Positions 28,850 to 50,729 of a stretch of DNA of 64,000 bases are shown here, piece by piece. A program made the translations under genes and the position numbers. This stretch comes from Promethearchaeota archaeon (GTDB taxonomy: Archaea; Asgardarchaeota; Thorarchaeia; Thorarchaeales; Thorarchaeaceae): assembly GCA_048939765.1 (NCBI GenBank), contig JBHLPF010000004.1:12784-76783 (forward strand), given 5' to 3'. The notes beneath the pieces were generated by a model. It searched no databases. It saw only the letters and a list, made by a program, of their open reading frames with translations, and was not told where the DNA came from. Position 1 is the stretch's first letter; each line of letters starts with the position of its first letter.

Positions 28850-29677
28850 CTAAAGGTCGCCGACCCATGATTCATAGTCGGCTTTGATTTGAGATGCTTC
28901 GTCTGAGTCGCCAAAGTCTGCTGGATCGATGTGCAGGTCGTCCCCATCTTGGACTGCTTCGATCACCATAATGCCTGGGGCCTCGATCTTGACACCCATC
29001 TTTCCATCACGCTCAAAGCGCTCTGTGTAGACTAGGTCTGCGTTTCGGACTGCTGAGTATATTAGGTATGCAGTTTTTTGCTCAGCCGCCCCTGCAGGGG
29101 GGGCAACGACTGGCTCAGGCTCGGGCTCAGGTTCCGGCTCCTCAGTGATGGTTGTAGCAGTGATAGTGGGTGTTTCGGGAACAGTTGGCGCAGGCTCAGG
29201 CTCGGGCATAGGCGCTGGCTTGGCTGGCCTTGCCTCACTTGCTATCGGGGGGCCCGGTCCAGGATCAAATGCCAAGAATTTGTCTTCAAATTGCCATCTC
29301 CTTGTGATAGCTTCTCTGAATCTTTCAATGGCTCCGGCAACCTCAGGGTCGCCAGCATCTTTCTCTAGCATCTCGACATAGTGCGTGGATGCCATTCCAA
29401 TGTTGGTGATCCCTATACTGTGTCCTGACTTCGCAACACTCTTCCCAATTCGAAGTGCGTGCATTCGTGTGGGCATGTTTACATTGCGCCCTACAAATAC
29501 CCAGCATGTATCATTAATCTCATCAAGCACTATGATGGCAGAATCGCTATTGACTAGTGATGCATCTAGCTTGACAGGCGTTACTTCACCAGAATCATCC
29601 TGAAGCATCAACATGAATGGTTTTCTTGAAAGGGGTTTCTTCGGAATCCCGGTAACCTCCTGTAATGTTGGTCCCAA
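28850..29677 (-). CDS. Gelsolin-like domain protein: one gelsolin domain, Pro/Glu-rich linker, unknown C-terminal domain
   Basis: SLVNSDSAIIVLDEINDTCWVFVGRNVNMPTRMHALRIG fits the gelsolin L.S.D.FILD...I.VW.G pattern; PEPEP linker. Confidence 0.7.
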   Translation of the reverse strand: MGPTLQEVTGIPKKPLSRKPFMLMLQDDSGEVTPVKLDASLVNSDSAIIVLDEINDTCWVFVGRNVNMPTRMHALRIGKSVAKSGHSIGITNIGMASTHYVEMLEKDAGDPEVAGAIERFREAITRRWQFEDKFLAFDPGPGPPIASEARPAKPAPMPEPEPAPTVPETPTITATTITEEPEPEPEPEPVVAPPAGAAEQKTAYLIYSAVRNADLVYTERFERDGKMGVKIEAPGIMVIEAVQDGDDLHIDPADFGDSDEASQIKADYESWVGDL

Positions 29678-29836
29678 ACAGCCCTTCCTATACTCGCTTT
29701 TAACAAATCCTCGGACAGACTCTCAGCCCACTGTCTTGATTCTTCTTCCAGAATTTCCGCGACTCACCGAATCTCCCGCACCAAGACAGTTCTAGTATAT
29801 TATCATATCTCCTATTAACAATACATTCGAGACTAG

Positions 29837-29888
29837 TTTATATAGAGCTCCCATTATGGGAAACTTGCCCATTCTTCCCATTATGGGA
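29837..29888 (+). promoter_or_regulatory. TATA box followed by two identical palindromic operator-like sites
   Basis: TTTATATA at 29837-29844; TCCCATTATGGGA at 29849-29861 and at 29876-29888. Confidence 0.72.
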
Positions 29889-29939
29889 GTCGAATGGCCG
29901 GGACCAAAACATAGCGAACGCAATGGGTGGGTGCAAGAC

Positions 29940-30197
29940 GTGACCAGAAGCACACTAACACCCGTTCCCTGTCCAGTATGTGGAGCAGTTGTGGACGGTG
30001 TCACTGTAGATGAGGATTCTATCAAGAATGCCGAACGAGTGCCAGTGATCGTTCCCACAAAGTGTAGCAAGGGCCATGCAGTTGTGCTGTTTGTGGACAG
30101 GACCCTTACAGTAAGAGACGTTGAGGCCGCTGCTGAGGCAGTACAGGATGAAAAAGATGCTGTAGAAAAAGCACAGGGCTGGATGGACAACTTCTAG
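29940..30197 (+). CDS. Small Zn-ribbon protein (CxxC...CxxxH)
   Basis: CPVC and CSKGH followed by VVLFVD...VRDVE. GTG 29940 chosen because the longer ORF runs into the promoter. Confidence 0.75.
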   Translation: MTRSTLTPVPCPVCGAVVDGVTVDEDSIKNAERVPVIVPTKCSKGHAVVLFVDRTLTVRDVEAAAEAVQDEKDAVEKAQGWMDNF

Positions 30198-30209
30198 GTG
30201 AGAGATGCA

Positions 30210-30599
30210 ATGTTACAGGGAGTCTACATAGTGAACCATGCCGGGGAGACCCAGGCTGCAATAAACATGGGAGAATTCACGGTGGATGAAGTCCTCTTCG
30301 GAGGATTCCTCTCAGCGATTCAGATGTACACCCAACAGATGTCAGGAACTGACCTTGAGGAGCTCTCTCTGGACAAGTTTCGTATGCTAATGTCACGAAC
30401 GGAGAATTCCTTCGTAGTTAGCGTTCATGACCGAGATGACGAAGATGCAGCTGATCTGAATCGAAAGGTCAAGGCCATTCTCGATAATGGCATGGACGGT
30501 ATAATCACGGAGGACACTATAGAGATGATTCGTGAAGTTGCCCGCAGGGCCGCAGGTGCTGGCGAGCGCGCAGGAGAATGGGCTTCGAAGATGTTATAG
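30210..30599 (+). CDS. Longin-like domain protein
   Basis: MLQGVYIVNHAG...LFGGFLSAIQMY followed by three beta strands and a helix, the longin fold pattern seen in Asgard proteins. Confidence 0.78.
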   Translation: MLQGVYIVNHAGETQAAINMGEFTVDEVLFGGFLSAIQMYTQQMSGTDLEELSLDKFRMLMSRTENSFVVSVHDRDDEDAADLNRKVKAILDNGMDGIITEDTIEMIREVARRAAGAGERAGEWASKML

Positions 30600-30610
30600 G
30601 GGTGAAAGAA

Positions 30611-31996
30611 ATGCAACTACTCGTACAGGATGCATCAGAACTTCTGATGGCAGTGACATTGATTCTTGCAGCCATCATTCTAACTCGATATACAAGGCTT
30701 CGGACCGCCGACCTTCCTCCTGAAGAGAGAGGGGCGGGTCAGCCGCTATATCTGTCAGCGTTAGGAATCTTGACGCTGGCAGTGGCTTCGTTCTTGAACT
30801 ATCAGCTTCCACTTGATGCTGCTGCTTCAGTGTTGACTGCAACATATTATGTTACAACAATGCTAGCAGCCGCACTATTCGCTATTGCAGCTCTCATGAT
30901 ATTGGAGTGGAGGCGAGCTATAGTCGTTCCAGTAGTGATGCTAGTCCTCGGAACTGTCTATACATACGCGATCGTATTCATGGAAATGACTGTGAGCTTT
31001 GGCATGGTGGTAGGGCCAATATCCCTGATTCTCAACCTTGTACCGATTGGGCTATTTGCCTATTTGGCACATAAGACCAAGAGAATCACAGCAATTGCTC
31101 TACTATTCCTTATCGTTTCTTACATCATATATCCAATGGCAAGCACGTCGATTGATCCTTCAATGATTGCGGCACTACTTGGAATTCGGCTTTTGGGTCC
31201 AGCTCTGGCGATTTGGGCTTTTCTCAAGCCTGATCTCGGCGTTTCCATTGAGCTCTTTGGCTATGCTCTGTCCATCAACATAGTCGCGTTCTTTCTCTCC
31301 TATGTTGTAGCGATTGGCTTTGGAGATGCAATACTTTCAATCTCGGTGAGTCTTCTTGCCCTGTTGGCTGTTGTAGGATTTGCGACGAGTACATTCACAT
31401 TTTCTAGATTCCGTGAGCGACGAAATCCTGCAACTGGTCTGTTGGCGGTCTATTTCATTGTAGGGTCTGTGAGCTACATCATCGTTGCTCTCACCTATCT
31501 CGGTGCATTGACTGGCGCCATGAATGACTACACTAGCTCAATACTTGGCCTTATGGCCATGATGTTCCTCAACCTCAGTGCCTTTGTTGCTCTTGATTGG
31601 CGACGAATACTACTGCTTCCAATTGTGATTGCCGCACCAGCCATTGTCTTCATGATGATGAACTATCCGACCCCGATTGACGACATTGCTGGTTATGGGG
31701 CTTTCTTTGGAATGACAAACATGATTCAGAACATGGTTCCACTTGGACTGTATTTCTTGCTCTGGTACAGGATGAGGAAAGCAGATGCTATGGGAAGAAG
31801 CAGGCCCCTGTTTCTTGGTCTTGGACTTATCCTCCTAGCCGTTGGTAGCGTGATTGGTATGTTCACTCAAGGTGAGTTCACATCCGTTGGACTCGTTCCA
31901 AGCTCAACGTTGCTTCTTGCATACGTTGTGTTCTGGCTGGGTGTCACTGGCCGAGCCGACCAGCTCCTAGGCACATTTCGTCCGGAGGCACTATGA
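30611..31996 (+). CDS. Polytopic membrane protein, about 15 TM, with an internal 7TM duplication
   Basis: 15 hydrophobic segments counted by eye; paired motifs EWRRAIVVP/DWRRILLLP and NLVPIGLF/NMVPLGLY. Confidence 0.8.
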   Translation: MQLLVQDASELLMAVTLILAAIILTRYTRLRTADLPPEERGAGQPLYLSALGILTLAVASFLNYQLPLDAAASVLTATYYVTTMLAAALFAIAALMILEWRRAIVVPVVMLVLGTVYTYAIVFMEMTVSFGMVVGPISLILNLVPIGLFAYLAHKTKRITAIALLFLIVSYIIYPMASTSIDPSMIAALLGIRLLGPALAIWAFLKPDLGVSIELFGYALSINIVAFFLSYVVAIGFGDAILSISVSLLALLAVVGFATSTFTFSRFRERRNPATGLLAVYFIVGSVSYIIVALTYLGALTGAMNDYTSSILGLMAMMFLNLSAFVALDWRRILLLPIVIAAPAIVFMMMNYPTPIDDIAGYGAFFGMTNMIQNMVPLGLYFLLWYRMRKADAMGRSRPLFLGLGLILLAVGSVIGMFTQGEFTSVGLVPSSTLLLAYVVFWLGVTGRADQLLGTFRPEAL

Positions 31997-31997
31997 A

Positions 31998-32516
31998 ATG
32001 GCACTTCGAAGCCCAATCTACAAGATGGTTCTAATTGGCGAAGGCGGCGTTGGCAAGACCAGCATCACTGTTCGCTACACTGAGGACCGATTCGATGAAC
32101 AAATGAAGATGACAATAGGAGTCAACTTCGCATCAAAGGAGGTTGTTCTCGACGATGGGAGTGTCCGGCTTATGCTCTGGGATCTTGGGGGTCAGCCCAG
32201 ATTCAGGGATGTAGTCTCCGGATACTTCAAGGGGGCAAGAGTAGCTCTTGCTGTCTATGATGCAAACAGGTACTTCTCTCTTGAACGTCTCACTGATTGG
32301 ATAAGTCGTGTGAGAGAGAATGCTCCTGACTGTCAACTCATCTTTGTTGGAAACAAAATCGATGAAAGGCAGAATGGCCAAGGCGTGCCTCTAGAAGAGG
32401 GGCGAGAGTTCGCCGTGAAATACGGAGCCGCCTGTGTAGAAGTATCTGCAAAAACAGGAGAGGGTATCTCAGAGCTGTTTGAGGTCGTCGCTCGTTCTCT
32501 AGCGAGCGAAAATTGA
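31998..32516 (+). CDS. Rab-like small GTPase (Ras superfamily)
   Basis: G1 GEGGVGKT, G2 TIGVNF, G3 WDLGGQ, G4 NKID, G5 SAK; no C-terminal Cys. Confidence 0.95.
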   Translation: MALRSPIYKMVLIGEGGVGKTSITVRYTEDRFDEQMKMTIGVNFASKEVVLDDGSVRLMLWDLGGQPRFRDVVSGYFKGARVALAVYDANRYFSLERLTDWISRVRENAPDCQLIFVGNKIDERQNGQGVPLEEGREFAVKYGAACVEVSAKTGEGISELFEVVARSLASEN

Positions 32517-32706: not shown

Positions 32707-32871
32707 CTAGGTCATCGCGAATCTAGGACACTTTTCCTTGTTGATTCCCGGTGTTTCACAGGGCTTTTGCATACCTGTGTAGAATTTGAAGCCATCTACC
32801 CCGCATTTGCCTTCTGCAGCATTGTATTCTGGACAAGTCATCAGTAGATTCACCAACACGGTCTTAGTCAC
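32707..32871 (-). CDS. Small four-Cys protein (54 aa)
   Basis: GTG start after purine-rich GAAAGGGGAC; TCPEY...KC...PC...KCPRF. Confidence 0.55.
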   Translation of the reverse strand: MTKTVLVNLLMTCPEYNAAEGKCGVDGFKFYTGMQKPCETPGINKEKCPRFAMT

Positions 32872-33019
32872 GACTCGGTCCCCTTTCTGAGATCCGAGTG
32901 ACTTCGAGGAGTATTCCCTCTGAGGGCACATATTAAGCTATTTTGGCTCTCCCTATACCTAGTGTTTTCCACCGCGAATCAGCGTTTAGCGCATGCTATC
33001 TGTTTAGTATGCCCTTCTA

Positions 33020-33943: not shown

Positions 33944-35164
33944 GTGACTGAAGGTCGAAAGAAGCTAGTCACGCTAGTGTTTGTACTAATCGCCATCTTT
34001 AGCAACTACTTGATTATCACCCTCCTTCCAGCGGAACAGTACCAGGGATGGGTTGCACGTGAGGGAGATGAGGTTGAGTACTATGTTGAGGCAGAACTCA
34101 ATTCGGGATCAACATATGTGGCGAGTCTATTGGATGACTATGGGCTATCTTCTGGTTCCACCTTATCTGTCCGTGCAACCAAAGTCCCTACAGATGTCAA
34201 TGTTTCTGCAATAGCAGGATATCTCTTGACCTTGAATGGCATCGTGCAGATAGAACAACGGACTGGTCAGGAATGGGTTCACAGGAACTCAAGTCTGCCG
34301 TTCTTCCTTCCTGTGGGTTATTGGGAGTCAATTGAAACGACCCTGGGCGAACAAATGGATGTGACTATAGAACAGGAGTGGTGGGGAGAGATGAGTCTCA
34401 CCGCATCACATAGCTCTTCAGAACTGGGAAATGTTGGCCTATTTCTAGCTTGGGGGATTACAGACGGTGTGCTCCAAGGTATGGCCATTAACGCATCAGC
34501 TCCGGATGGATGGGACTTCGTGCGATTGGCACTCTCAGGTCAACGTCTTGCGTACGAAACGGATTTGAATTGGCTCAGCCGTTCTATCGGTCGAACTCTG
34601 ATCAGCTTGCTTCTAATAGCTGGTGCTTTCGGGCCAGTCATTCTCATAGGACTGCTATGGAAATTGGAAATCAGGGCACGACTGACCAAACCACTGACTG
34701 GGACCTTGGCAGAGCGTCTTGAAATATATGGCAGAGAATACCTATTTGTCTGGAGTCTAGGTGTCTTAATCTCTGCATTGTCGGGCATTATATCCATCCA
34801 ATTCATCGAGGAGTCGATTTCACCGGTCATTCAGTCATATCTTCTCTCAATCTTGCTGGGCACACTAGTTTCCCTGTACAGAGCACGAAGGATAGATAGT
34901 CCTGCTGCTCCACTCGAAGTCATTCAGTATTGTGTCACATGTGTGGCTGTTTCAATATCCGGCCTCTTCATAGTCAATCCAAGCGAGGTAGCTGACCCAG
35001 TCGCATATGCTCTGCCTCTAGTACTGATGGTGATCATGATGGCTATGCTTTTCCTTATGCATCCTCTGAGAGCCCTCAGGTCTAGAATAGAACTGGAGTC
35101 GGATGAACTGGTGTATGCTTCACCTAATGAGAATGATGACTATCCAAACGAGTATTCCTTGTAA
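33944..35164 (+). CDS. Hypothetical membrane protein (N-terminal TM, extracellular domain, about 5 C-terminal TMs)
   Basis: Hydropathy pattern; WVAREGDEVEY start of the ectodomain. Confidence 0.7.
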   Translation: MTEGRKKLVTLVFVLIAIFSNYLIITLLPAEQYQGWVAREGDEVEYYVEAELNSGSTYVASLLDDYGLSSGSTLSVRATKVPTDVNVSAIAGYLLTLNGIVQIEQRTGQEWVHRNSSLPFFLPVGYWESIETTLGEQMDVTIEQEWWGEMSLTASHSSSELGNVGLFLAWGITDGVLQGMAINASAPDGWDFVRLALSGQRLAYETDLNWLSRSIGRTLISLLLIAGAFGPVILIGLLWKLEIRARLTKPLTGTLAERLEIYGREYLFVWSLGVLISALSGIISIQFIEESISPVIQSYLLSILLGTLVSLYRARRIDSPAAPLEVIQYCVTCVAVSISGLFIVNPSEVADPVAYALPLVLMVIMMAMLFLMHPLRALRSRIELESDELVYASPNENDDYPNEYSL

Positions 35165-35574
35165 TCGCCATGGAATTCCGTTGGCATTTCACGAAGGATT
35201 GCTACAAGACGATCTGTTGCCTTTGCTGTCTTCAATAACCTGGGCATATTGCCTTTGATCTTGAGCTTGCGAGTGATGAACGCCCTGTTGGCACTGATTT
35301 TACCAAGCAGAATGTCCACCCACACACGATAGGGTGCGCTCAAGATGAAAGAGGTTTCACGCTCACCTGTCCAGATATCCGTCATCTTGCCTTCTGCTAT
35401 CTCAAATCCCACTACTCTTGTGTCCTCAACCCCCTTGTCGGGCTCCGCCTGCAATACGAGAGTGTAGGAGTCATTGACAGCTGATGCGAGATTCATGTAC
35501 TCCTCGTCTTTGTTGAGATTCTCCTTGAATAGCTCCAGATACCTGTCATTACCGAGCTCCATTCTATCCGCCAT
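35140..35574 (-). CDS. SCP2 sterol/lipid-binding domain protein
   Basis: WVDILLGKISANRAFITRKLKIKGNM SCP2 signature. Confidence 0.85.
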   Translation of the reverse strand: MADRMELGNDRYLELFKENLNKDEEYMNLASAVNDSYTLVLQAEPDKGVEDTRVVGFEIAEGKMTDIWTGERETSFILSAPYRVWVDILLGKISANRAFITRKLKIKGNMPRLLKTAKATDRLVAILREMPTEFHGDYKEYSFG

Positions 35575-35588
35575 TTCATTTCCTCCTT

Positions 35589-36602
35589 TCATATCTCCAC
35601 AAGCACTTTCACTTCATTACTCTCAGGCTGGGTCAGTGCTTTGAACCCTTCCTCGACAATATCATCCAGAGGGATAACCTTCGTGATATAAGGCGTCGGG
35701 TCAATTGTCCTGTTGCCCAACAAGTCAATCGCTTCTTGGAACTCTGCGTATCCCAAATAACTGAACTGTACAGTCAGTTCGTTCAGAACGCCCGTCATGA
35801 AGTCTGCTTCCACAGGCTCTTCGCTTATTCCTATAATCAGTATTGTCCCTCCTCTCTTTACCAACTGAAAGGCGTCTGCAGTTGGTCCGGGCGCACCTGT
35901 ACATTCCACCACTAGGTCTACTCCCATGCCTGCTGTGAGAGCCTCTATCCTCAGAGACACTGACTCATTCTTCGCATTGATGACTGACTCTATTCCCGCC
36001 TCTCTTGCCATTTCTAATCTCCCTTGTTTGATTTCAGAAGCATAGATTGCAGACGCTCCTTTGAATCTAGCATACTGTAGACTCAGTAGTCCTATTGGGC
36101 CTGTCCCTTGGACAAGAACCGTTTCTCCAGACTTGAAGGCTGTTCTTCTGAAGCCTCTGACTACTATAGAGAGTGGCTCGACAAAGGCCCCGGTCTTGTA
36201 GTCGATTGAATCGGGCAGGTGGTATAGGACGACTTCAGGCAGAGCAACAAGCTCAGCTAATCCTCCATTCATGGATATCCCTACCATCTGCATATCTTCG
36301 CAAATCGAATGCCTATTCTTCGTACAGAAGGTGCATCTGCCACAAGGAATCAAGGGATTTGGAACCACTCTATCTCCCCTCTTCCATTTGCTCACCCTCT
36401 CTCCCACATCCACGACTTCTCCTGTGAACTCGTGACCCATGATAAGGCCGCCCTCGTACATCCCATATTCCCATGCACTCAGGTCTGTGCCACAGATGCC
36501 TACATACTTCGGTTTCACTAACACATCAGCGGATCCCACCTCAGGCTCTGGAACATCTTTTACTTGGATGTCGTCTGCCCCCTCGTAGACTGCCGCCTTC
36601 AA
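35589..36602 (-). CDS. Zn-dependent MDR alcohol dehydrogenase (butanediol/threonine dehydrogenase-like)
   Basis: GICGTD, GHEFTG, CGRCTFC...C, GTGPIG. Confidence 0.92.
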   Translation of the reverse strand: MKAAVYEGADDIQVKDVPEPEVGSADVLVKPKYVGICGTDLSAWEYGMYEGGLIMGHEFTGEVVDVGERVSKWKRGDRVVPNPLIPCGRCTFCTKNRHSICEDMQMVGISMNGGLAELVALPEVVLYHLPDSIDYKTGAFVEPLSIVVRGFRRTAFKSGETVLVQGTGPIGLLSLQYARFKGASAIYASEIKQGRLEMAREAGIESVINAKNESVSLRIEALTAGMGVDLVVECTGAPGPTADAFQLVKRGGTILIIGISEEPVEADFMTGVLNELTVQFSYLGYAEFQEAIDLLGNRTIDPTPYITKVIPLDDIVEEGFKALTQPESNEVKVLVEI

Positions 36603-48231: not shown

Positions 48232-48425
48232 GGTGTCACCAATCTACATCACGACGGCTTCGTGTTAAATAATGTGCTATTTTGTGCATTCCATATATGA
48301 TACTTGAGACCGACCCAACAAAGTACAAAAAGGCCGTTCGTCCTCAAAGAACTATTAGAACAACCCACTAGACATGCAGTTGAAGGTCTGAATGGTGTTG
48401 TTTTCGAACCGGATGGTATCTCAAA

Positions 48426-50729
48426 TTGACCACGCCTAGAATTCTCTTCGAGATCGAGGATGACAAAAGCACCACCGCAATAGCCATGGGAGACGTCACT
48501 GGATCAGGAACCTCAGAACTCTGTACGGGAGACCGGGATGGTGTCCTTAGGCTATATGATGGAAGTACAGCTGAGATTAGGTTCCTCGCTCAAAAGGACC
48601 TAGAAGGCAGTATCCTGTCACTCAAAATTGCAGATGCGAATAATGATGGTCGAATGGAGATTGTTGTAGGACGCAGTCTCGATCCAGGAGATATTCCGGG
48701 TGAGTCCGGTACTCTTCAAGTCTATAGATTCGCACCAAGTGGACAGTTTCAACTTCTAGGAGAGTATCCGGTTGACAAGTTTATCACAACTGTCATGGTG
48801 ACTGATGTCACGGGGGATGAGAAGAACGAGATAATTGTTGCAGGGAGTGACTCGTCTCTTCGAGTGTTCCAGATGGATGTTGATGACAAGATTACTGAAT
48901 ATGCCAAGCATCAGCTTGAAAACATGCCAATCTCGATCGGTGTCTGTGATGTGATTGGTGATGAAATCGACGAGTTTGTCACAGGTAACATTGATGGCTC
49001 ACTCAGAGTGTTCAAGGTGAGGGACCACACCATTGATGAGATTGAAGTACTACAGCTTCCGAGTCCGATCATATCAGTCAAGGCTGGAGATATCTTGGGT
49101 GACAGGAAGATGGAGCTGGGCGTTGTCACTCGAGACGGGACTATCAGAGTCTATCGAAACGAGGAGAGCAAGCTGGACCTCTTCACCAAGCTTGAAGGAG
49201 TGAATGCACTCTCCATTGTGATGGAAGAGATCAATGCAGATCACATGGATGAGATGATAGTTGCAACTTCTGATTACAAGGTCAAATTCTACAATCTGCA
49301 TATGGCCGAGCTTCTAGAACTAGCCAGCGTGAACATTGGCGAGAAGATTCTCTCAATCAGTGTTGGAGATGCAGGAGGAGATGACCGAAAAGAAGTCCTA
49401 GTGGGTATATCGAACGGTCCATTGAGGGTTCTCCAGGGCCTCTATCAGCTGATTCCCAAGTTTGAGATTGATACACAAGCAAAGACCGGAACTAATCTCA
49501 TAGGCAAAGTCACTGTTGCGAATATCACAAGTCAGCCCATCACTGGAGTCACTGGCAAGGTATACTGGTTCCCTAAGGATAACCTCCAGGTTTCTAACAA
49601 TCACCTCAAATTCGATCTGAATCCTGGTGAAACCAAGACGATTCAATTGGACCTTGTACCTACCACTGAAGGAACTGTCATCATTCGTCCAATAGTGTTG
49701 ATGTGGACAGATGCTTCAGGCCAAGTGAAACAGATCACAACTCCTGAGACTGCGATCCTCGTGGAGAAAGGAGCTGCTGTAGCTGCGCCCGCTGCCATGC
49801 CATCAGTATCATTGCCCGAACCTTCGGCAGCCATCGTTGATGATTTGACAGACTATGCCCCAGCCGAGGGCACTGGCTTTGCTGAAGTCGAGAAAGCTAA
49901 AGCAGCAGAGATTCTCAAGATGACTGCCTCTGAGGGTTCGGATGAGTCCTTGAGAGAGGCCGAAGAGTTGCTCGACAAGCTGTTTGGAGTAGAGGAAACC
50001 GGTACAGTCATCTCTGAGGTTGAAGAGGTTTCGGCAGTGATGGAACAGGCTGCTCCCCCGGCCCCTGCTCCGGCACAAGTAGTCGTTGAAGAAGTCGTGG
50101 ATGAGAGCGCTCTAGTCACTGAGATGAGAGCACGTACTCCTAAACCGCCACGCCCAGGTACGCCCAGCGACAGTTACACTTACCTCTTCAAGGTAATGGT
50201 GACCGGGGAAGGCGCTGTAGGAAAGACGACGCTCGTAAATCGCTACGTAACTGGTGTTTTCGAGAGGGACTACAAAACGACGATTGGATCTCAGTTCGCC
50301 GTCAAGCTCACTCACATTTCGCCCCCAGAGCCGGAGTACGCTGTGGGAATCAAGCTTCAGTGTTGGGACGTTGCCGGGCAGGCCAGATTCAAGGCTGTGC
50401 GCAAGATGTACTACAGTGGTGCAGCAGGAATCATCCTCGTCTATGACGTGACCAGAAGACGCTCATTCACCGAGCTCTCCAAGTGGGTCAAGGAGGCGGA
50501 CGAGTCAATTGGCCTACGCGTGCCAATTGTTGTGGTAGGCAACAAGACCGACCTTCCAGACAGAGCAGTACCATCAGCTGAGGCGAAGCGCTGGGCGGAG
50601 GACCAAGGCTTTCTCTACATGGAGTCTTCTGCAAAGACTGGTGATGGCGTAGCAGATATGTTCACTGTCCTGGCTGAGCAGATGTGGCGAGATGCAAAGA
50701 AGGCCACTGAGGCAAAGAAAAACAGATAG
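48426..50729 (+). CDS. Fusion protein: FG-GAP/BBS2-like beta-propeller, Ig-like domain, acidic linker, Rab-like GTPase
   Basis: Seven blades with D-x-x-G-D-x-x-x-E motifs; beta-sandwich (LNPGETKTI); GEGAVGKT, TIGSQF, WDVAGQ, NKTD, SAK. Confidence 0.9.
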   Translation: MTTPRILFEIEDDKSTTAIAMGDVTGSGTSELCTGDRDGVLRLYDGSTAEIRFLAQKDLEGSILSLKIADANNDGRMEIVVGRSLDPGDIPGESGTLQVYRFAPSGQFQLLGEYPVDKFITTVMVTDVTGDEKNEIIVAGSDSSLRVFQMDVDDKITEYAKHQLENMPISIGVCDVIGDEIDEFVTGNIDGSLRVFKVRDHTIDEIEVLQLPSPIISVKAGDILGDRKMELGVVTRDGTIRVYRNEESKLDLFTKLEGVNALSIVMEEINADHMDEMIVATSDYKVKFYNLHMAELLELASVNIGEKILSISVGDAGGDDRKEVLVGISNGPLRVLQGLYQLIPKFEIDTQAKTGTNLIGKVTVANITSQPITGVTGKVYWFPKDNLQVSNNHLKFDLNPGETKTIQLDLVPTTEGTVIIRPIVLMWTDASGQVKQITTPETAILVEKGAAVAAPAAMPSVSLPEPSAAIVDDLTDYAPAEGTGFAEVEKAKAAEILKMTASEGSDESLREAEELLDKLFGVEETGTVISEVEEVSAVMEQAAPPAPAPAQVVVEEVVDESALVTEMRARTPKPPRPGTPSDSYTYLFKVMVTGEGAVGKTTLVNRYVTGVFERDYKTTIGSQFAVKLTHISPPEPEYAVGIKLQCWDVAGQARFKAVRKMYYSGAAGIILVYDVTRRRSFTELSKWVKEADESIGLRVPIVVVGNKTDLPDRAVPSAEAKRWAEDQGFLYMESSAKTGDGVADMFTVLAEQMWRDAKKATEAKKNR

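Follow-up and report, generated by a model that had tools for sequence, protein, structure and literature searches.

Operons that couple a sensor to a small GTPase are already known. In the conservons of actinobacteria (CvnA-CvnD, AGPS), the components are a membrane histidine kinase, a roadblock protein of MglB type, an accessory protein presumed to be an exchange factor for guanine nucleotides (GEF), and a small GTPase, with as many as 13 paralogous operons in one genome (PMC4316618, PMC13343842, PMC13621833); their original authors, as cited in PMC4316618, likened the arrangement to G-protein-coupled regulation (Komatsu 2006). Within the Asgard archaea, an operon of a LAMTOR1-like roadblock protein, a Rab-like GTPase, and a DENN protein has been reported from most members of the group and proposed as an exchange module (Liu et al., bioRxiv 10.1101/2020.10.19.343400). 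Asgard archaea encode dozens of eukaryote-like small GTPases together with longin and roadblock proteins, and how the regulators are paired and how GTPases without a lipid are recruited to the membrane are largely unknown; in MK-D1, GTPase genes are generally not in operons with regulators, which makes pairing hard (Tran et al. 2024, PMC10933270). Here, we describe an exception, in a 64,000-nucleotide stretch (the window) of a Thorarchaeial genome (Promethearchaeota archaeon, assembly GCA_048939765.1, contig JBHLPF010000004.1, positions 12,784 to 76,783): four open reading frames (ORFs) on the same strand (29856-32516, +) encode, in order, a zinc ribbon, a protein with a longin fold, a membrane protein of 15 helices, and a Rab-like small GTPase. 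One GTPase thus stands with a likely regulator pair and a likely membrane partner, and the genome (3.37 Mb in 108 contigs, 88.5% complete) holds three such matched sets, so the pairing is directly testable with recombinant proteins. The membrane component was previously undescribed and is found in close relatives of eukaryotes. A 2026 preprint reports Asgard '7TM proteins' and structural clusters labeled as G protein-coupled receptors (GPCRs), with no tie to GTPases, and we found no paper describing this operon, a search whose scope left out most subscription journals, so that absence is no proof.

A first-pass annotation of the window had read this locus (28850-32516) as a tight operon encoding a zinc ribbon, a longin, a 15-helix membrane protein of seven-transmembrane (7TM) type, and an unprenylated Rab-like GTPase, head to head with a gelsolin-like gene and possibly signaling to actin. 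The operon is borne out, its ORFs overlapping or separated by gaps of at most 12 nt, and so are the labels of its products: an invariant CPxC...Cx3H motif in 15 homologues for the zinc ribbon, a predicted longin topology with structural matches to longin and roadblock proteins, agreement of hydropathy and a structure model on 15 helices, a 7TM type at the level of predicted fold, resembling GPCR bundles, and no C-terminal cysteine motif in 20 GTPases.

The strongest result is the linkage itself, which goes beyond chance: the four genes duplicate and diverge together. The three copies of the module lie on contigs C54 (the window's), C48, and C13, each with its own zinc-ribbon, longin, and GTPase genes, and the same four-gene linkage recurs in related genomes, in the most divergent metagenomic members (P0198, P0185, P0181, and P0183), and in two further families of the phylum, one being Atabeyarchaeia by its source names and the other, at a guess, perhaps Njordarchaeia. 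Among about 28 modules examined, a GTPase gene is present in every one where the contig allows, and both small genes accompany about 27. Three arrangements occur: zinc ribbon-longin-membrane protein-GTPase, in the window and all non-Thorarchaeial lineages; GTPase-zinc ribbon-longin-membrane protein; and one with a convergent GTPase gene. The linkage therefore survives rearrangement. Trees of the zinc ribbon, the longin protein, and the membrane protein each recover the same six module lineages, and the tree of the short GTPase recovers five, with two intermingled. The flanks of the two paralogous modules have nothing in common with each other or with the window (a PAS-HTH regulator and a TPR protein at one; threonyl-tRNA synthetase, an oxidoreductase, UvdE, and DUF362 at the other) and share no effector; because these flanks are unrelated, we take the four genes to be the unit.

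The module is lineage-restricted. Its membrane protein belongs to an unnamed family with 65 representative clusters among 1.84 billion proteins, none of them in a fused form and none with a representative longer than 502 amino acids. It was found in 50 of 400 genomes of the phylum, including 43 of 85 from the window's family, all three from a second family, and 3 of 19 from a third, and not found in the remaining phylum genomes searched, among them 135 of the largest family sampled. Conservation of gene order, which the first-pass annotation had set as its check, is thus seen in Thorarchaeia and in two further Asgard families, and does not extend to the 350 of 400 genomes where the membrane protein was not found. 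At three loci (L031, L039, and L040), two modules are direct neighbors, arranged either in tandem or head to head; one of the two in L040 has no detectable zinc-ribbon ORF of at least 50 amino acids.

The membrane protein (30578-31996, +; 472 amino acids, or 461 from the alternative start) has 15 helices both by hydropathy and in an AlphaFold2 model (predicted local distance difference test [pLDDT] 80.5, predicted template modeling score 0.75), and these result from an internal duplication, 7TM + linker helix + 7TM. When residues 12-222 are compared with residues 246-466 by hhalign, the two halves align helix by helix with 91-92% probability (E ~1e-7), against at most 7.8% for reversed and block-shuffled controls. 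By this alignment the first 7TM unit spans residues 18-216 (30629-31225); the linker helix TM8, delimited by the model, spans residues 224-249 (31247-31324); and the second unit, a GPCR-like bundle in the model, spans residues 252-457 (31331-31948). TM8 would keep the two units parallel, a necessity when a homodimer of a protein with an odd number of helices is fused. A search of this genome with hidden Markov models of the half-protein found no single 7TM unit standing alone.

The second 7TM unit is predicted to have a GPCR-like fold, a statement about likeness and not about homology. Compared with all Protein Data Bank (PDB) representatives by VIA-align, residues 250-465 best match a designed GPCR-like fold (Z 17.5; root-mean-square deviation [rmsd] 3.2 A over 204 residues), followed by ADGRL3 (Z 16.6; 4.2 A, 209 residues) and CD97 (Z 15.7), and then by class C receptors, Frizzled, Ste2, and receptors of class A; GPCRs make up nearly all of the 50 best chains. 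Sequence does not place the protein in a GPCR family: neither the window's protein nor its 15 homologues match any Pfam or NCBIfam model, and a search of the ESM Atlas returned unnamed clusters only, the nearest named entry, HisKA_7TM at 0.84, being at chance level. An identity as a microbial rhodopsin was rejected on the lack of a conserved Schiff-base lysine in TM7 or TM15 among the 15 homologues.

Conservation in this protein is concentrated on one side. Columns conserved at 90% or more make up 18.3% of the cytoplasmic half and 3.5% of the outer half, and the near-universal polar residues (R42, E49, R51, R169, E225, Y229, R277, T286, R409, and T457-G458, from 29 representatives with mutual identity of at most about 50%) are all predicted to lie on the cytoplasmic side; the near-invariant E225 and Y229 are carried by TM8. 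A second feature varies between subfamilies: about 12 of the 29 family representatives have a pair of buried acidic residues (Glu or Asp) at equivalent helix 3 positions of both units (TM3 and TM11). The other two copies of this genome, on C48 (L013:4260-5642) and C13 (L014:4472-5938), have the pair, and the window's clade lacks it; possibly a site for an ion or ligand, it may set paralogous modules apart. Together, the variable outer half and the subfamily-specific buried acids suggest different inputs for each paralogous module.

The GTPase (31998-32516, +; 172 amino acids) is the only one of all five proteins of the locus that the curated libraries (Pfam and NCBIfam) recognize, with matches to Ras (2.9e-42), Arf (3.8e-12), and Gtr1_RagA (1.8e-7). 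Its best solved matches are Rab6, Ypt6, Rab11, and the crystallized Thorarchaeota Rab 7ezb (E 1e-32 to 1e-34), and by these sequence comparisons it is closer to Rab than to Arf, Rag, or MglA. All 20 module GTPases compared keep the P-loop GxGGVGKTS, the switch-I threonine, the WDLGGQ motif with its catalytic glutamine (invariant), NKxD, and SAK. None of the 20 has a C-terminal cysteine motif (CC, CXC, or CAAX), the window's protein ending in ...SLASEN, and the latter also has no N-terminal glycine for myristoylation; because the prenylation motif is missing, we call the module GTPase Rab-like and not a canonical Rab. The module GTPases also form a group of their own: among the genome's 26 small GTPases, the three from modules score 240-375 bits against one another and the next best scores 116, and 17 module GTPases fall into a single clade of moderate support (81/68), with no non-module GTPase inside, when a maximum-likelihood tree is built. 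Elsewhere in the window, a 781-amino-acid multidomain ORF (48384-50726, +) contains a Ras/Roc-type GTPase domain related to the module GTPase (phmmer E 6.6e-25).

The two small proteins look like regulators of this GTPase. The first (29856-30197, +; 113 amino acids as the longest ORF) is a zinc ribbon by its motif, with two pairs of putative metal ligands on knuckles: C39, P40, C42, C70, H74, and W109 are invariant in 15 homologues (CPxC...Cx3H), and its Pfam matches, to Zn_ribbon_Brz and Elf1, are weak and below threshold. The second (30198-30599, +; 133 amino acids, or 129 from the alternative start) belongs, according to its AlphaFold2 model (pLDDT 73.6), to the roadblock/longin superfamily, in the longin arrangement. 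The modeled topology is b-b-a-b-b-b-a-a, with strands at residues 6-12, 18-23, 53-58, 61-67, and 72-78 and helices at 31-47, 84-98, and 105-132. With Foldseek, the model matches AP2 sigma (3e-5), zeta-COP, TRAPP longin subunits, LAMTOR, and MglB; with VIA-align, the VAMP7 longin comes top (Z 12.2, rmsd 2.4 A, 112 residues), followed by MP1-p14, MglB, delta-COP, an MK-D1 roadblock, and CPLANE and, lower, by Mon1-Ccz1, BLOC-3, SRX, and DENN. Sec22b, sedlin, and AP sigma also match it structurally. Longin chains align over the whole model and roadblock chains over residues 3-102 only. A roadblock/LC7 identity was considered and rejected: Robl_LC7 matches one of 15 family members at E 0.07, and the model, which opens with two strands and has two C-terminal helices, departs from the roadblock order a-b-b-a-b-b-b. 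Residues G16, G36, F37, S39, and A40 are invariant among 36 homologues, in at least 90% of which W128 is kept. Two of 15 family members have weak, sub-threshold matches to Fuz_longin_1 (best E 0.0016), which lean slightly toward a GEF platform. Both small proteins end in a short conserved tail containing a tryptophan (W109 in the zinc ribbon, W128 in the longin protein), and these tails are candidate docking pegs.

We put at about 60% the probability that the four genes together specify a single small-GTPase switch anchored in the membrane. The reading builds on what is observed here, namely that the genes are linked and duplicate together, which folds are predicted, which motifs occur, and how conservation is distributed. 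Rab, Rag, Arf, and MglA GTPases are loaded or unloaded on platforms that recurrently consist of longin and roadblock proteins. We favor a membrane-anchored switch because the GTPase is anchorless, each copy is genetically tied to one membrane protein, the cytoplasmic face of that protein is conserved, and longin/roadblock proteins are known platforms. The tandem-7TM protein would amount to a parallel dimer of 7TM units joined covalently and would sit in the cell membrane as the platform and probable sensor, exposing its conserved basic face to the cytoplasm. The Rab-like GTPase would be the output, held at the membrane through the complex because it has no lipid anchor of its own. The longin protein, probably with the zinc ribbon, would set the nucleotide state of the GTPase as a platform of GEF or GTPase-activating protein (GAP) type, the pair perhaps docking by its tryptophan tails, and paralogous modules would respond to different inputs. 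No flanking effector is conserved beside the module.

Several points weigh against this reading. The module is patchy in its distribution and is not a core Asgard function. Both 7TM units are predicted to be N-out/C-in, for which the sole basis is the positive-inside rule applied to hydropathy, and their extracellular loops are short, with no obvious ligand-binding domain. The model of the membrane protein was built on 15 sequences, and GPCR bundles match its second unit at Z 14-17.5, values to be read beside the Z of about 13-14 that helical bundles often reach by arrangement alone; Foldseek gave no PDB match to the membrane model at E of 0.001 or below, the best being E 0.07 (LYCHOS/GPR155). 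The longin protein matches no Pfam longin or roadblock model above threshold, PDB sequence searches with two profiles of it (15 and 36 sequences) returned nothing meaningful, and it has no invariant arginine finger. The tree leaves the three most divergent module GTPases without a resolved position. Finally, every physical interaction, the direction of signaling, and the assignment to GEF or GAP are things that we infer.

A stronger form of the same idea is that the module is a true archaeal receptor-to-small-GTPase system, in which a covalently dimerized 7TM receptor would respond to an external or membrane cue, the longin/zinc-ribbon pair would switch the module's own Rab-like GTPase, and the paralogues would serve as separate channels. 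We regard this as possible and put it forward tentatively. If the membrane protein is a sensor, coupling of a 7TM receptor to a Ras-superfamily GTPase through a longin platform existed in archaea, which bears on the origin of eukaryotic membrane signaling and of Rab recruitment; a true receptor system would mean that receptor-G protein coupling and the sensor-Ragulator-Rag logic of the lysosome have a counterpart among prokaryotes, in those most closely related to eukaryotes.

Alternatively, the mechanism could be that of a GPCR in the strict sense, with the 7TM protein as a ligand-activated exchange factor and the longin and zinc-ribbon proteins as adaptors, a GAP, or effectors. The GPCR-like bundle, the N-out/C-in prediction for both units, the basic loops conserved where helices 1, 5, and 7 of each unit end on the cytoplasmic side, and the fact that every membrane paralogue is strictly paired with a GTPase of its own would all fit. 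However, fold likeness alone does not imply exchange activity, the protein has no sequence relation to any GPCR family and no ligand-binding ectodomain, and nucleotide exchange on small Ras-family GTPases normally falls to soluble GEFs, longin platforms among them; the module always has a longin. We consider direct exchange by the 7TM protein unlikely.

The membrane protein could instead be a transporter or 'transceptor', like SLC38A9 or the transporter half of LYCHOS, either regulated by the GTPase module or reporting substrate flux to the GTPase. Fifteen helices would suit such a protein, many paralogues have the paired buried Glu/Asp in helix 3 in the manner of many ion or substrate sites, and the top Foldseek rows, though weak, are LYCHOS/GPR155, with MATE and MurJ rows as well. 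Yet the MATE and MurJ rows have probabilities of at most 0.4 and TM-scores of about 0.15-0.2, no transporter family was matched in Pfam or NCBIfam, and the window's clade does not have the acidic pair. The repeat is also a parallel 7+1+7 and not the inverted repeat typical of secondary transporters, and the structural search of the entire PDB is dominated by receptor bundles. These points make a transporter quite an unlikely identity.

Rab-like GTPases act as trafficking switches in eukaryotes, and the module might serve trafficking or biogenesis, with the GTPase and longin acting like SR-beta/SRX or like a coat/adaptor pair that would take care of targeting, inserting, or sorting the membrane protein, itself cargo and not a sensor. 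The longin model does match SRX in its complex with SR-beta (Z 9.2), the sigma and mu subunits of AP, and zeta- and delta-COP. A general targeting machine, however, would not be expected to co-duplicate with one cargo, and here each membrane paralogue has its own GTPase, longin, and zinc ribbon; the cytoplasmic face is the most conserved part of the membrane protein, which fits a partner better than a passive cargo; and no coat or signal recognition particle genes are linked. We judge this alternative very unlikely.

The neighbor that led to the actin proposal, gel275 (28850-29677, -; 275 amino acids), is transcribed divergently from the operon, 178 nt upstream of it. It belongs to a widespread unnamed Thorarchaeota family in which a Pro/Glu-rich linker, variable in length, joins an N-terminal domain to a well-conserved C-terminal domain of about 80 amino acids. 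The N-terminal domain is plausibly, at best, a divergent gelsolin/cofilin-like domain: hhalign matches it to 32 Asgard gelsolin domains with 92% probability (E 6.6e-7 over 54 columns; reversed control 0.5%, controls <1%), and the ESM Atlas gives gelsolin leads at 0.88 and 0.81. At the sequence level, gel275 itself has no Pfam Gelsolin match, 6 of 26 family members match weakly and below threshold (best E 0.018), and PDB searches with gel275 and with its family profile gave nothing meaningful. [quoted passage not shown] Of the head-to-head gelsolin-like gene in the first-pass annotation, the adjacency stands and the gelsolin label is the weakest of the set. Adjacency to the module is confined to orthologous copies (L002-L004 and L021); gel275 is absent from both paralogous modules of the genome and from all other module lineages, and in three more distant Thorarchaeota, its orthologue keeps GNAT, GalT, and GalK as neighbors with no module nearby. 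The adjacency is incidental, and gel275 is not part of the module. That the module signals to the actin cytoskeleton through this gene, as had been proposed from a 178-nt head-to-head arrangement kept in close orthologous loci and a plausibly gelsolin-like domain, is scarcely credible given its absence from the modules of every other lineage, the module-free distant orthologues, and a gelsolin identity below the Pfam threshold. The genome has other gelsolins: a 125-amino-acid, single-domain, ProGel-like protein (Pfam Gelsolin 28 bits) about 3.3 kb past the end of the window (C54:80086-80295; L034:1372-1749), a two-domain gelsolin (L032), and a 153-amino-acid gelsolin (L035).

The gene order in the window is GalK-GalT-GNAT-gel275, then the module with a small Cys-rich ORF, then GDPD, and the module sits in a variable slot of this order. 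With the longest ORFs, the zinc-ribbon and longin genes are separated by 0 nt, the longin and membrane protein genes overlap by 22 nt, and the membrane protein and GTPase genes are 1 nt apart; with the starts of the database proteins, ATG 30210 for the longin protein (P0279) and ATG 30611 for the membrane protein (P0001), the gaps are 12, 11, and 1 nt. Three starts are candidates for the zinc ribbon: ATG 29856, ATG 29883, and GTG 29940. The conserved core begins at about residue 29, where a 71%-identity orthologue (L004) also begins, and would be about 85 amino acids long if translation starts at GTG 29940. Upstream, direct reading of the sequence gives a TATA-like box, TTTATATA (29837-29844, +), also found in the close orthologue L015 and a putative archaeal promoter. 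Just downstream are two identical 13-bp palindromes, TCCCATTATGGGA (29849-29861 and 29876-29888), each with an in-frame ATG inside; they are the only exact copies in the 3.37-Mb genome and may be a putative operator. The L004 orthologue has neither the palindromes nor the N-terminal extension, so the palindromes may lie in a leader or operator and the zinc-ribbon gene may start at GTG 29940. A scan for sigma-70 promoters and terminators, uninformative for an archaeon, found no intrinsic terminators. Convergent with the GTPase gene is a Cys-rich ORF of 74 amino acids (32707-32931, -), which is kept downstream of the orthologous modules L002, L003, and L021 (identity up to 93% over the aligned part), matches no Pfam or NCBIfam family, and does not occur at paralogous modules. 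Farther along, a 150-amino-acid protein of the SCP-2 sterol/lipid transfer family is encoded at 35140-35592 (-; Pfam 1.5e-9).

The favored switch can be compared with several described systems. With GPCRs and heterotrimeric G proteins, the module would share a predicted seven-helix N-out/C-in bundle genetically coupled to a GTPase, and its tandem form recalls the obligate dimers of class C. It differs in having no GPCR sequence relation and in its partner, a GTPase that is small and monomeric and has neither the helical domain of G-alpha nor beta-gamma subunits; coupling in the module is deduced from gene linkage alone. The MglA-MglB pair likewise places a small Ras-superfamily GTPase beside a roadblock/longin regulator, and MglB matches the longin model at Z 11.8, but MglB, which is a GAP, forms a homodimer of roadblock type, MglA is of a distinct family, and the pair has no dedicated membrane protein or zinc ribbon. 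The longin-platform Rab GEFs (Mon1-Ccz1, CPLANE Fuz-Inturned, BLOC-3, the TRAPP core, and DENN) combine a longin fold with a Rab-type GTPase, and their chains match the longin model at Z 11.2 for CPLANE, 10.5-10.8 for TRAPP longin subunits, 9.6 for Mon1-Ccz1, and 9.2 for BLOC-3. In contrast to these, the module's longin is a single small domain and not part of a tri-longin heterodimer, its partner may be the zinc-ribbon protein, and its sequence matches are below threshold; because the VAMP7 longin, MP1-p14, and MglB score equally well or better, a GEF subtype is not assignable.

The lysosomal Rag systems of eukaryotes (Ragulator/LAMTOR, GATOR1, and FLCN, with the membrane sensors SLC38A9 and LYCHOS/GPR155) resemble the module in logic, with a polytopic membrane sensor acting on a small GTPase via longin/roadblock regulators. 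LAMTOR and GATOR1 chains are among the matches of the longin model, and LYCHOS has a GPCR-like 7TM domain of its own and provides the top, but insignificant, Foldseek rows for the membrane model (E 0.07, TM-score ~0.3). The module GTPase, however, is Rab-like and has a single domain with no C-terminal roadblock domain, it is not a Rag heterodimer, and no mTOR pathway accompanies the module; the comparison is one of logic and not of homology. The operon of Liu et al. also links an Asgard Rab-like GTPase to a protein of the roadblock/longin superfamily, but with a soluble DENN protein, whereas the module has a tandem 7TM protein and a zinc ribbon, no DENN, and a presence in few lineages.

Beyond the Ras and roadblock/longin superfamilies, no protein family is common to the module and either the conservon or Rag-Ragulator/LYCHOS, and the likeness to the conservon is in organization only: both are four-gene operons of a sensor, a roadblock/longin protein, an accessory protein, and a GTPase, and both occur in several co-evolving copies per genome. 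Each component nevertheless differs. The membrane part is a histidine kinase in the conservon, whereas in the module it is built as a tandem of 7TM units and has neither a HisKA nor a HATPase domain; the GTPase is Rab-like, eukaryote-type by its best matches, in the module and MglA group 2 in the conservon; and the module's regulator has the longin topology, its Robl_LC7 matches staying below threshold. For an accessory protein, the module has a zinc ribbon and the conservon has CvnC, of the DUF742 family; for 15 members of the zinc-ribbon family searched at E up to 1, DUF742 was not among the best 25 of 31 families. The host is an Asgard archaeon, and no orthology between components was detected. 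The conservon is, even so, the nearest described system in organization, and the module is best called conservon-like, without being a conservon.

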